A DNA stretch of 64,000 bases, from the NCBI GenBank assembly GCA_963727505.1, contig CAVSGP010000006.1, positions 96,001-160,000 on the forward strand, written 5' to 3'. Positions 41,410-46,962 of this stretch are shown in pieces (within the stretch, counting starts at the first letter, position 1; each line of letters begins with the position of its first letter). The position numbers were made by a program, and so were the translations under genes. The stretch is from an uncultured Trueperaceae bacterium (GTDB lineage Bacteria > Deinococcota > Deinococci > Deinococcales > Trueperaceae). Under the pieces are notes generated by a model. The model did no database searches and had not been told where the DNA came from. It saw only the letters and a program-made list of their open reading frames with translations.

Positions 41410-44561
<3,152 letters not shown>

Positions 44562-44630
44562 GGGTGCCCTCGCCGGGCAGGTGCCGTGTGTGCACACGCG
44601 TTCGGACGACTCGCCCCGTACAATGACGGC

Positions 44631-45005
44631 ATGAGCATAGATCCCGACGACCGCGTTCTCGAGGCGCGCACCGCAGTCCTGCGGGCCGCCGTTCCGGCCG
44701 GCGTGCGGGTGAGTTTCGGTGATGGACGCCGTCGAAGCGACCTGACGCTGGCGCTGCTTCGGGGCGAGCGGCTGTCCGTCCTGATGCTGGCGCCGCGCCT
44801 GCTCGAACAGCTCCCAGCCGACATCGAGATCGTGCGTAGCGCCCACGTCGGCCAGAGCTACGAGCTGATGATGGCGCTCACCGAGAGGATCGACCAGCAG
44901 CCGCTACGTTCGCCCGAGCGGCGCGCCAAGCTGCGCCAGCTCGCCGAAGAGCCGATACCGGACGACGAGACCGCGACGCTCCTCGACGCCGGCGACCCTG
45001 CCTGA
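44631..45005 (+). CDS. Hypothetical protein
   Basis: MSIDPDDRVLEART...; TACAAT -10 box 6 nt before ATG. Confidence 0.75.
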   Translation: MSIDPDDRVLEARTAVLRAAVPAGVRVSFGDGRRRSDLTLALLRGERLSVLMLAPRLLEQLPADIEIVRSAHVGQSYELMMALTERIDQQPLRSPERRAKLRQLAEEPIPDDETATLLDAGDPA

Positions 45006-45083
45006 GGGTCGCGCGAACGGCCGATAGGCCTGTCCAGCACAAGGGTGCGTGCTTTCGGCGGCAGCCAGCGGAGAGCGCCGCAT

Positions 45084-45118
45084 AGCCTATTGCATAGGCT
45101 GCAACTCCGTGCTAGACT
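45084..45118 (+). promoter_or_regulatory. Sigma70 promoter with an operator-like palindrome over the -35
   Basis: TTGCAT (45090-45095), 17 nt, TAGACT (45113-45118) with extended TGn; palindrome AGCCTAT-TGC-ATAGGCT (45084-45100). Confidence 0.75.
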
Positions 45119-45192
45119 CCCTGCCCGGGGATGAAGTTCCCCATGCGGCGGCCCCCAGGGCCCCAGCCCATGTCATCAGGGAGGTGAGGTCG

Positions 45193-45357
45193 ATGATCCA
45201 GAACACCTGCGTGCACGTTTCGGGGCTCGCTCGTTGCGCTGTCGACCTGCGTCCCCCCGCCGACGTCGCCCGTAAGGGCACCGAGGTGGCCGGCCGGGGC
45301 GCCGGTGTGCGCCGCTCGCTCGAGGAGGGTCCCCCGCGGGACCGAGGGTCTGCCTAG
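45193..45357 (+). CDS. Candidate attenuator leader peptide (54 aa)
   Basis: Strong SD GGAGGTGA; MIQNTCVHVSGLARCAVDLRPPADVARKGTEVAGRGAGVRRSLEEGPPRDRGSA*; terminator 30 nt after the stop. Confidence 0.6.
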   Translation: MIQNTCVHVSGLARCAVDLRPPADVARKGTEVAGRGAGVRRSLEEGPPRDRGSA

Positions 45358-45386
45358 CAGACTCCCGTCCGACACCCGATGTCGGC

Positions 45387-45417
45387 CCTCGGCGAGCCCT
45401 TCGCCGAGGCTTTTTTT
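45387..45417 (+). terminator. Intrinsic terminator (attenuator)
   Basis: CCTCGGCGA-GCCCT-TCGCCGAGG-C-TTTTTTT. Confidence 0.85.
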
Positions 45418-45462
45418 GGCCCCAGTCCGCCATCACCCCATGAAGGAAACGAGGAGGTTTCG

Positions 45463-45606
45463 ATGAACAGCTTCATGCTTCTGCAACGAATCCGCGCCCG
45501 CGCCGGCCAGCTCCGGCGCGAGCCCACGGCCGAGCGTCTGCGCCGTGCCGGATATGCCGACGGCGAACGCCGGCCCCGCATCACGCGACACTGGGCCAAC
45601 CGCTAG
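45463..45606 (+). CDS. Small Arg-rich protein (47 aa)
   Basis: SD GAGGAGG 5 nt before ATG; MNSFMLLQRIRARAGQLRREPTAERLRRAG... Confidence 0.65.
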   Translation: MNSFMLLQRIRARAGQLRREPTAERLRRAGYADGERRPRITRHWANR

Positions 45607-45673
45607 CCCGCCGCACGGCCAGCAACGCGTGCGGCACGGCTCCAGAAGGCAGCGACGCCCTGAGGAGGGCAGC

Positions 45674-45925
45674 ATGAACGGATGGTATTTCGGCGCAACC
45701 GTCGCCGCACGCGAACGCATGAAGGACTTCCGGCGCCAGGCCGACGATGCCCGGGCCGCACGCAACGCACGGCACCAGGCAGGTACCCTCGGCGGCCTGG
45801 TTCTGGCCCGCCGCAGGGCCGCGACGGCGCTGTACCGGCTCGCCGACGCGCTCGCGCCACGGTCGGTCTCCGGTCCCGAGCCGATGCGCGGGGCACGTGA
45901 CGTCGGAGGACGCCCGGTCGTCTGA
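45674..45925 (+). CDS. Small Arg/Ala-rich protein (83 aa), similar to the preceding ORF
   Basis: SD GAGGAGG; MNGWYFGATVAARERMKDFRRQADDARAAR...RRRAATALYRLADALAP. Confidence 0.7.
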   Translation: MNGWYFGATVAARERMKDFRRQADDARAARNARHQAGTLGGLVLARRRAATALYRLADALAPRSVSGPEPMRGARDVGGRPVV

Positions 45926-45991
45926 TCCTTGACCGTTCGGCAACGCCTCGGCTCCCGTCCGACCGGGAGAGGGGCACCGCCGGGACGGAAC

Positions 45992-46028
45992 GGAAGGGCC
46001 CGCAGCCTCGAAGGCTGCGGGCCCTTCC
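45992..46028. terminator. Perfect 17-bp hairpin between convergent genes
   Basis: GGAAGGGCCCGCAGCCT-CGA-AGGCTGCGGGCCCTTCC. Confidence 0.75.
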
Positions 46029-46065
46029 ACGAGGGGTACGGCCGCAGGGAGTGCTCAGGGAGCGC

Positions 46066-46347
46066 TCAGCGGTCGCCTCTCATCAAGCGCTCCAACCAGA
46101 ACGAGCGCGTGGGGAAGGCGGCGAAGGGGTTCTCGATGCGGGCGGGCTCGCCGTGGAAGCGGCGCAGCATGGCCTCGACCCGCGCGACATCGAGCTCCGC
46201 AGAAGCGCGTGTCGCGGTGGCCCTCGCGGGGGCGCGCCCCGCGATCCGGCCCGGCCCGTTGTGGGGGCGCGGGCGCTCGGGAGCGCGTTCGCTCCCTGGC
46301 AGTGGCATCCCGGCCAGCGTACGGAGGACGGTGGGCAAGGACCTCAT
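46066..46347 (-). CDS. Small hypothetical protein (93 aa)
   Basis: MRSLPTVLRTLAG...ENPFAAFPTRSFWLERLMRGDR; TACCCT -10-like box 6 nt before ATG. Confidence 0.55.
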   Translation of the reverse strand: MRSLPTVLRTLAGMPLPGSERAPERPRPHNGPGRIAGRAPARATATRASAELDVARVEAMLRRFHGEPARIENPFAAFPTRSFWLERLMRGDR

Positions 46348-46455
46348 GACCGCAGGGTAGGGCTCGGTCGCTTTCGGTTCTCTTACCGGGGCAAGTGAGG
46401 CCGTCACCGACGCGCGTGCGTCGCTTCGGTCGCGATCGTCGCGGGTGCGGTCGGT

Positions 46456-46505
46456 GCGATTCCAGTCGCTGCGATTCCAGTCGCTGCGATTTCAGTCGCT
46501 GCGAT
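46456..46505 (+). repeat. 15-nt tandem repeat GCGATT(C/T)CAGTCGCT x3
   Basis: Read directly; it duplicates the stop-codon region of the ORF ending at 46492. Confidence 0.85.
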
Positions 46506-46851
46506 GTCCGTCGGTGCGGACGCGGTCGAGGATGCGTTGTACCTCGCGCCAGCGGAGGTCACGACGCATCGACCCGGTGGTGACGAACGCGAAGGGATCG
46601 CGTCCCCGGAAGCGCGCGATCATCAGGTCCCAGCTCATACGCCTGCGGCTCATGGGTCGGTAGAGCACGGCCGACGCCCCAAGGTCGTTGTCGAAGCGGT
46701 AGATGCGTTGCCGCCATTCCTCGAAGAGACGTGCGAGGTCGGCGTAGGCCCGGTCCAGGGCGTCGTCGGCCAACAGGCGGTAGGGCCCCTCGTACACCAG
46801 GTGGTCGGCGTGGCGATCCTCGAACTCGAACAGCAGCTCCGACGCTTCCAT
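46492..46851 (-). CDS. Hypothetical protein (119 aa)
   Basis: MEASELLFEFEDRHADHLVYEGPY...; TAGAAT -10 box 5 nt before ATG. Confidence 0.75.
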   Translation of the reverse strand: MEASELLFEFEDRHADHLVYEGPYRLLADDALDRAYADLARLFEEWRQRIYRFDNDLGASAVLYRPMSRRRMSWDLMIARFRGRDPFAFVTTGSMRRDLRWREVQRILDRVRTDGHRSD

Positions 46852-46962
46852 GGTCGATTCTAGGCAGGGGTGAGGGCGCGACACCGTGACATCGTCGACG
46901 CTTCGACGCTTGCCGGCGGCTGCGCCGGCGCGTACGCGGGCGCTCAGGACGGCGCTCACGAC

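Follow-up and report, generated by a model that had tools for sequence, protein, structure and literature searches.

We analyzed a 64,000-nt stretch of DNA from an uncultured Trueperaceae bacterium (GenBank assembly GCA_963727505.1, contig CAVSGP010000006.1, positions 96,001 to 160,000), which we call the window and which lies within a 3.26-Mb genome of 15 contigs. The piece under study, positions 45084–46028, is an apparent gap of 945 bp that holds a promoter with an operator-like element, a leader with a short open reading frame and an intrinsic terminator, and two small genes, here named orfA and orfB. Both genes encode basic proteins and have Shine–Dalgarno (SD) sequences of the GAGGAGG type, as a preliminary description of the window had proposed. 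Comparison with related loci leads us to favor, with somewhat better than even confidence, the interpretation that the leader is a ribosome-mediated attenuator that reports leader translation and gates the two small proteins. The argument builds on the following elements (uORF, upstream open reading frame; MFE, minimum free energy):

45080–45100, no strand assigned: operator-like element over the −35, with a direct repeat GCATAGCCT/GCATAGGCT and the palindrome AGCCTAT-TGC-ATAGGCT
45090–45118, plus strand: promoter, −35 TTGCAT (45090–45095), 17-nt spacer, −10 TAGACT (45113–45118)
45127–45142 and 45147–45164, plus strand: 5′ leader hairpins P1 and P2, from the MFE fold
45180–45357, plus strand: SD GGAGGTGA (45180–45187) and leader uORF of 54 aa, ATG at 45193, TAG at 45355–45357
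45312–45329, plus strand: putative antiterminator 5′ strand CGCCGCUCGnnCGAGG, the RRSxEE codons (RRSLEE here), complementary to the terminator 5′ arm (45386–45397)
45328–45343, plus strand: hairpin H1, GGTCCC/GGGACC, encoding GPPRD
45346–45364, plus strand: hairpin H2, its loop containing the stop codon of the leader
45369–45385, plus strand: hairpin H3, CCGACA/TGTCGG, abutting the terminator
45387–45417, plus strand: intrinsic terminator, stem 45387–45409 of 10 bp, 3-nt loop, T7 run to 45417
45463–45606, plus strand: orfA, 47 aa, basic, SD GAGGAGG
45674–45925, plus strand: orfB, 83 aa, SD GAGGAGGG

Taken alone, the sequence of the window would make a weak case, and ours rests on the comparison with its relatives. 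In 2.2 kb we found one terminator-like site against a mean of 0.7 in shuffled sequences; because a single site equals the shuffle expectation, the evidence for the terminator, which had been claimed at 45387–45417, is its conservation. It is present between uORF and orfA in 27 of the loci read, and the whole plan (a promoter with GNATA, a strong ribosome-binding site, a uORF of 30–62 codons, the terminator, orfA, and orfB) recurs in 16 loci with the same leader type as the window (own-type) and in 11 with diverged leaders. The uORF stops in or beside a hairpin, the peptide drifts freely, and in the loci read the leader was always directly followed by orfA–orfB. The own-type set consists of 15 distinct leaders, nine from genomes and six from a metagenome scan, with locus L087 as the sixteenth. 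The scan used the pattern of H3 and terminator, and 13 of its 30 matches had the leader, several of them repeating genome loci.

The SD and the 54-aa leader, with LRPP at residues 19–22 and EGPP at residues 45–48, were found as earlier described. All 15 distinct own-type leaders, and also L087, keep the SD and the start codon, with a frame that stays open for 46–62 codons, and the distance from the leader stop codon to the terminator is 33–35 nt in nine of nine loci. In the variable part of the leader, which precedes RRS, close pairs show an even distribution of substitutions among the three codon positions, most of them nonsynonymous; the leaders of the window and of L047 differ by 2, 9, and 5 substitutions at codon positions 1, 2, and 3, or by 3 synonymous and 9 nonsynonymous codons. 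As frame, SD, and stop are kept while the peptide drifts near-neutrally, selection seems to act on the act of translation and its end point only and not on the peptide. In view of this almost neutral evolution, a functional leader protein was dropped as a reading. The stems of P1 and P2 shift in sequence and retain their pairing in the alignment of the nine genome loci (A1), judged by eye without a formal count.

The two proline motifs, though present, fit the role of a sensor less well. LRPP is not conserved among the leaders. EGPP or GPP lies seven codons before the stop and is kept in 13 of 16 own-type leaders, with PS, PIP, or GIP in place of the proline pair in L051, L064, and L013; all six low-GC leaders (L083, L084, L085, L086, L090, and L092) have no proline pair near the uORF end. 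Among the three GPP-less leaders, L051 and L064 fold a clean H1, whereas L013 does not. Since two of the three keep the H1 stem sequence, GPP looks largely like a by-product of the GGUCCC stem of H1, perhaps with a helpful pause, and not like a sensor of EF-P or polyproline. Reading the leader types by eye, we found no shared codon run or residue enrichment for any one amino acid.

In the terminated structure, which consists of H1–H3 plus the terminator, 90.5% of cells are paired, compared with 30–48% when the partners are slid. H1 is paired in 94% of cells, its top pair being UA in six, CG in five, and GC in three sequences, and H3 in 91% with little variation. A hairpin occupies the H2 position in all 15 leaders, built from about seven different stem sequences, and the in-frame stop lies in or at its loop in every one of them; a pairing with GCAGACTC just after the stop, put forward in the preliminary description as an alternative, corresponds to this conserved hairpin. 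CCGAC...GTCGG hairpins recur in L030 and L031, and in L083 and L090 the same stem is the terminator itself.

The proposed combination of a translated leader, a terminator, and a mutually exclusive antiterminator held as an architecture, with a different antiterminator strand. The suggested 9-bp pairing of 45342–45350 with 45384–45392 exists, but it ranks third (−21.2 kcal/mol) for the terminator arm of this sequence and is unconserved: in the eight other genome loci, this segment never appears among the four top-ranked partners. Instead, the RRSxEE segment at 45312–45329 is the best partner in seven of nine loci and the second best in the other two. With the terminator 3′ arm blocked, its pairing with the 5′ arm closes a four-way junction around H1–H3, and this fold is the MFE structure in 14 of 15 leaders. 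Junction and terminated folds differ by −0.3 to 9.1 kcal/mol, and in L005, L008, L027, and L029 the antiterminated fold comes out as the MFE structure even without a constraint. RR is invariant in the own leader type. CGCCGCUCG of RRS shows zero synonymous variation, as expected for an RNA constraint. Complementarity as good as that in the leader studied here was found in 10 of 300 dinucleotide shuffles, and the corresponding counts were 0 of 300 for L083 and L085, 2 for L090, and 19 for L030; overall, this support is strong in five of ten loci, weak in three, and absent in two. No conserved upstream segment sequestering the antiterminator (an anti-antiterminator) was found in the leaders.

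Of the features that define an attenuator, the leader has an open reading frame with its own ribosome-binding site, an intrinsic terminator, and an antiterminator overlapping the translated region; codons for a sensed amino acid are absent. Rfam held no family for the region, its best hits being chance matches on a 17-bp hairpin downstream of orfB (mir-2070 with 29.8 bits at a gathering threshold of 95, Pxr with 22.5 at 80), and a riboswitch was dropped because loops and linkers vary. What the comparison of relatives brings out is which parts there are and in which order, that the frame stays open, that the stop sits in a loop, and that two alternative folds are predicted.

The diverged leader types share a G-N-ATA promoter, an AGGTG-type SD, a uORF, and a T-run terminator, followed by orfA and orfB. 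Their uORFs have 30 codons in L026, L027, and L029, 33–34 codons in L030 and L031, and, as read by eye, about 34–43 codons in the low-GC genera (L083–L086, L090, L092). In three of five and five of seven loci, the terminator arm, itself of different sequence, finds its best complement in a G-rich stretch within the final third of the uORF. The stop is in the loop of a small hairpin in most of them and between two hairpins in L085.

The promoter had been called a consensus promoter, TTGCAT-N17-TAGACT. Its elements are present and conserved but are no consensus match (three of six positions to TTGACA, four of six to TATAAT), and a consensus scan of 44400–46600 returned no promoters, leaving TTGCAT/TAGACT undetected. 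We take it as real because both hexamers and their spacing are kept in the nine genome loci of A1 and in seven further loci of other genera. The own-type promoter motif occurs once in its genome. An operator had also been claimed here, and the −35 is indeed spanned by a perfect 7 + 7 palindrome (45084–45100) together with the direct repeat, an operator-like arrangement as far as the sequence goes. G-N-ATA, five bases 5′ of TTGCATA, is invariant across A1 and is found again in the low-GC genera, where it often forms an inverted repeat (GAATATGC-N4-GCATATTC type). We searched five genomes for a regulon of the dyad AATATGC-N4-GCATATT, allowing up to three mismatches: in three of them, counts were near or below those of the reversed-pattern control, and in the other two the counts, of uninspected sites, were 6 against 2 (G002) and 48 against 22 (G085). 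The spacer from terminator to orfA varies from 38 to 132 nt and by eye has no conserved hexamers; no promoter belonging to the small genes themselves is recognizable 3′ of 45417.

In one rhizosphere metatranscriptome, a 257-nt contig from a close relative (21 differences, ~92% identical) covers 45175–45423, from just 5′ of the SD to just 3′ of the T run. A separate contig of 308 nt covers 45471–45770, from orfA into orfB, at a word depth of 2.5 compared with 11 for the leader contig. This is a weak hint that a discrete, terminated leader RNA exists. Among the RNA runs, this was the one with part of the stretch (a share of 0.07), and parts left uncovered carry no meaning.

In the mechanism that we propose, the conserved promoter, with the operator-like dyad over its −35, would give rise to a leader RNA of ~290 nt. 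On naked RNA, the RRSxEE codons at 45312–45329 would immediately pair with the newly made 5′ arm of the terminator, close the four-way junction of H1, H2, and H3, and block the terminator, so that transcription reads through into orfA–orfB. A ribosome on the last ~15 leader codons would cover the antiterminator strand and melt H1 and half of H2. With the stop located in the H2 loop, the terminator 5′ arm would then be free for its own 3′ arm, and transcription would end at 45417; melting H1 and H2 removes the scaffold that joins both strands, and the terminator should therefore form. Untranslated RNA should read through, since no anti-antiterminator is present and transcription yields the antiterminator strand ahead of the terminator 3′ arm. 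The operon would thus be silent as long as ribosomes on the leader keep up with RNA polymerase, and it would be switched on by failed initiation or elongation on the leader, as might occur when ribosomes are scarce, translation is inhibited, or cells starve.

The polarity and the signal of the switch, like the function of orfA and orfB, are what we infer. That a ribosome at the leader end breaks the junction and causes termination, and that a lack of leader translation gives read-through, we consider rather probable; the polarity is as the preliminary description had it, and it fits the predicted folds. The switch probably turns orfA–orfB on when ribosomes fail on the leader.

Several observations weigh against the attenuator with this polarity. 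In an equilibrium model, the terminator has a probability of 0.98 without a ribosome and of at least 0.3 at every ribosome position; because the terminator wins almost everywhere at equilibrium, the read-through state is a kinetic argument. A ribosome at the stop codon of the own-type leader leaves the antiterminator strand physically uncovered, and the model therefore needs steric or entropic blocking or an upstream pause. In some loci, shuffled sequences often offered complementarity as good as the native one (32–33 of 300 in L087, L026, and L084, 63 in L086, and 95 in L092). Some 11 loci (e.g., L009, L028, L032–L038) have a uORF and no T-run terminator, and one genus (L082, L089) keeps promoter and dyad without uORF or terminator. 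The loci are furthermore related by descent, such that counts across them overstate independence, and the RNA evidence consists of contigs of one run, which show neither ends nor levels and may derive from DNA in the library. From the terminator-less loci and the uORF-less genus, we conclude that attenuation would be a dispensable add-on to a promoter-controlled module, its form varying by lineage. In the long leaders of the first group (L009, L028, L032–L038), the uORF has 23–27 codons, and roughly 250 nt of GC hairpins lacking a T run come after it. L009, L028, L032, and L034–L038 share a conserved word, GGCATCATATA(Y)GA, ~100–150 nt 5′ of the −35.

Two alternatives keep the leader RNA and change what it does. 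The unit from promoter to terminator could mainly be a stand-alone trans-acting small RNA (sRNA), possibly with a dual function, and orfA–orfB be expressed by incidental read-through or from an unseen start. The strong terminator of its own, the conserved 5′ hairpins, and the separate RNA contig with the higher word depth (11 against 2.5) all fit this, and trans-acting RNAs derived from attenuators exist, such as rnTrpL in the accessible part of PMC7298713. Yet a pure sRNA needs neither the keeping of a frame nor the stop-in-loop geometry, the leader is always immediately 5′ of orfA–orfB, and a covariance model of its 3′ domain found a single occurrence in its own genome. The spacer to orfA, variable at 38–132 nt and by eye free of conserved hexamers, also speaks against an unseen start. 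We consider such an sRNA unlikely as the main function; the two roles are mutually compatible and do not exclude each other. In the other alternative, the four-way junction would bind a protein or small molecule that sets the switch, for instance in feedback by orfA or orfB on the CCGAC/GTCGG hairpin, with the uORF being secondary. The stems and H3 are very strongly conserved, CCGAC...GTCGG hairpins are repeated in L030 and L031, and both proteins are arginine-rich, as is frequent in RNA binders. Loops and junction linkers vary freely, however, no Rfam family is found, and the uORF features (SD, frame, and stop position) are the most constant parts, which leaves a binder a very unlikely explanation.

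The remaining alternative is an attenuator set by a defined stall, either at Pro-Pro, with dependence on EF-P, or at the Arg codons of RRS. In favor of a stall, 13 of 16 own-type leaders have GPP seven codons ahead of the stop, its proline codons show synonymous changes only whereas the pairing partner makes the residue after them vary (R, Q, E, or P), and RR is invariant in the own type; arrest peptides of the RAPP/RGPP type are also known (available part of PMC12992588). A ribosome at RR or PP would, however, cover the antiterminator strand and give more termination, not induction. The proline pair is replaced in L051, L064, and L013, with a clean H1 in the first two, and is absent from the six low-GC leaders; CGCCGCUCG of RRS lacks synonymous variation, as an RNA constraint predicts; and by eye, no residue is enriched across the leader types. 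A specific stall thus appears distinctly unlikely, and we retain the attenuator that senses leader translation as such.

The genes that this attenuator would gate encode proteins under selection, as indicated by substitutions piling up at third positions: between the window and L047, codon positions 1, 2, and 3 differ by 3, 5, and 13 substitutions in orfA and by 14, 10, and 24 in orfB. Both proteins are arginine-rich, hydrophilic, and basic. In orfA, the N-terminal half varies and the C-terminal motif LRRAGYADGERxPRxxRHWANR is near-invariant (alignments A2 and A6). OrfB is predicted by AlphaFold to form one long helix over residues 3–60 (pLDDT 78) with a disordered tail (alignments A4 and A7). 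Comparison of the two profiles aligned the 28 N-terminal columns with a probability of 49% and an E value of 1.7e-4, and the low-GC orfA and orfB both start with hydrophobic-A-K-D-R-x-x-D-L-R-R-x-A; the two may be paralogues, judging by these similarities. Prediction of an orfA–orfB complex scored 0.00 in both runs, which speaks neither for nor against binding.

Searches for known families gave little. Sequence searches of Pfam, NCBIfam, PHROGs, PADLOC, and the Protein Data Bank (PDB) assigned no family to the leader peptide, orfA, orfB, the upstream 139-aa protein up139, or the 113-aa neighbor downstream; Pfam gave none for orfA and orfB at E ≤ 1, none for 15 orfA members at E ≤ 10, and none for the low-GC members, and with this a DUF1127 identity of the cargo was rejected. 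RMF (PF04957), considered because of an RGYxAG-like motif, was rejected as well: its only hit in the genome at E ≤ 10 was on contig C9, and no RMF chain of the PDB was matched. The nearest clusters in the ESM Atlas scored below 0.9 and are unnamed, and looking for orfA in longer or fused proteins yielded three of 95–98 aa and none with multiple domains. A type I toxin was rejected since leader peptide, orfA, and orfB are hydrophilic without a hydrophobic span, although antisense RNA was not searched for. A RiPP (ribosomally synthesized and posttranslationally modified peptide) precursor was dropped, there being no modifying enzymes nearby.

The orfB profile found 147 representative proteins at E ≤ 0.001, of which 145 have 50–94 aa and two are longer (158 and 947 aa); ten matches were looked up, and their sole name was "hypothetical protein [Deinococcota bacterium]." In a phylum-wide sample, the profile hit 42 of 69 Trueperaceae genomes; among the other families, it hit 23 of 61 genomes in one, 9 of 103 in another, and 1 of 12 in yet another, and one of the families reached is what we take to be the Thermus/Meiothermus group. 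OrfB is a wider Deinococcota family of small helical proteins. OrfA, by contrast, was detected in 39 of the 69 Trueperaceae genomes and in none of 181 genomes of four other Deinococcota families. Within its own family, the orfA profile was found in 68 of 128 genomes, in 47 of the 79 of good quality, and in 18 of 36 genera, one of the positive genomes (G118) being unpublished. A scan of one genome per species with the orfA alignment gave 19 true loci, the named ones all from Trueperaceae or Deinococcales metagenome-assembled genomes.

Some loci deviate in their gene content. Two orfB-like genes follow orfA in tandem in L010 and L084, whereas in L081 and L091 (genus g12) orfA has a basic C-terminal extension of ~18 aa after WAN, no orfB is found behind it, and the upstream region differs. 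A second orfB context is seen in other Deinococcota (L093–L099), where stand-alone orfB-like genes of ~60–75 aa lie directly 5′ of genes with a SHOCT-like start (PF22746, E values of 8e-6 to 6e-3, below the cut-off, in four of four tested). Their promoters are strikingly AT-rich, with repeated ATGTAAAAC/ATATAAAAC-like words.

What the two proteins do, we can only guess: they might be RNA- or ribosome-associated stress factors. A bolder version, possible but in our view doubtful, makes them a lineage-specific pair of translation-stress effectors acting on ribosome or RNA (in hibernation, rescue, or mRNA protection) and made only when ribosomes lag. If true, this would be a new stress response of Trueperaceae, its leader a "ribosome-absence" sensor built as a four-way-junction antiterminator.

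The surroundings of the module contain the following features:

44586–45005, plus strand: up139, a conserved hypothetical protein adjoining the module upstream, a candidate member of the unit only
45991–46029, no strand assigned: closing hairpin, 17 bp, GC, no T run, between the convergent orfB and the 113-aa gene (46066–46407, minus strand)

A homologue of up139 lies directly 5′ of the module in the own-type loci, L026, L027, L029, L030, L031, L033, and L011. The protein, of 139 aa, carries a GDGRRR...VRS motif and accompanies the module in several leader types; it may be part of the same functional unit as orfA–orfB. Its AlphaFold model (pLDDT 79) has a helix-strand-strand repeat fold, for which no PDB match was found at E ≤ 0.001 and a fold search returned only weak, generic alpha/beta matches; Pfam, NCBIfam, PHROG, and PADLOC gave no hit. 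The closing hairpin is present as earlier described; its perfect stem was revealed by the chance microRNA match, and it is kept on both strands in four genomes of the same genus. A 15-nt tandem repeat of GTCGCTGCGATTCCA (4.6 copies, 89% matches) at 46450–46518 produced a chance match to CRISPR-DR20 in Rfam; it starts 43 nt 5′ of the start of the 113-aa gene (46407) and enters the 3′ end of a 155-aa open reading frame (46492–46959) by 27 nt. Upstream, at 43113–44561 on the plus strand, is a prolyl-tRNA synthetase of the archaeal/eukaryotic type with a ProRS-C_1 domain, a type usual for Deinococcota. Its location beside a Pro-Pro leader looks like a coincidence because the leader lies downstream and has its own promoter.

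We found no description of the module or of the Truepera small proteins in the literature covered, which excludes most subscription journals. Attenuators in which a uORF senses general translation capacity, instead of one amino acid or drug, have only recently been described, also with an unexplained arginine-rich mini-protein, and their recurrence suggests a common solution for supplying small basic proteins on demand when translation falters. The Deinococcota version differs in its intrinsic terminator, its junction-type antiterminator, and the stop codon in a hairpin loop. The system would be a compact, mutable test case, and it points to two protein families without a function, orfA seen only in Trueperaceae and orfB across Deinococcota.

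Attenuators of the vmlR and whiB7 type usually depend on a drug-stalled ribosome that exposes the antiterminator. The logic of whiB7 and ABC-F leaders had been invoked in the preliminary description, and as a functional analogy it stands, but it goes no further since the host is one of the Trueperaceae (Deinococcota) and not an actinomycete. As far as the accessible parts of the reports go, a uORF in the 5′ leader couples the state of the ribosome to terminator read-through in vmlR (PMC9226507) and whiB7 (PMC10274678), where it controls resistance factors or a transcription factor in Firmicutes or Actinobacteria; no resistance gene is found here. RAPP-like arrest peptides are defined by R-(A/G)-P-(P/G) upstream of protein-localization genes. 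They share with the leader a G-P-P near the C terminus of a regulatory uORF; here, E or G, not R, precedes G-P-P, the genes downstream are orfA and orfB, not Sec or YidC, and 3 of 16 leaders lack the motif. With E/G-G-P-P and this cargo, we rejected an arrest peptide of the RAPP/RGPP type (PMC12992588 and PMC10987492, the parts accessible).

The trp, his, and leu leaders resemble the module in combining a uORF with an intrinsic terminator and an antiterminator that excludes it, and so do leader peptides suggested for amino-acid and aminoacyl-tRNA synthetase genes of Deinococcus deserti (PMC4007540, as far as available), a proposed case of leader-peptide attenuation within the phylum. The module has no codon run for a single amino acid, no anti-antiterminator (region 1), and a nonbiosynthetic cargo. 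As region 1 is missing, untranslated RNA is predicted to read through, unlike in trp-type attenuators. The D. deserti leaders, according to the accessible part of that paper, are mostly leaderless, whereas the uORF here has an SD.

The nearest described system is duf1127-1 of Sinorhizobium meliloti, in which, following the part of PMC12218461 that is accessible, translation of a uORF is needed for a stop before the gene of a small arginine-rich protein, and tetracycline or ribosome shortage relieves this stop; its authors describe a sensor of translation status. The likeness is that uORF translation stops transcription before an arginine-rich mini-protein. In the portion of the work available, its stop is Rho-dependent, with the element at uORF codons 3–10, and alphaproteobacterial, whereas the module studied here has an intrinsic terminator, a putative junction antiterminator at the uORF end, and an unrelated cargo. 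The novelty lies in a known attenuator logic that appears to be built differently in another phylum, in front of two uncharacterized protein families.

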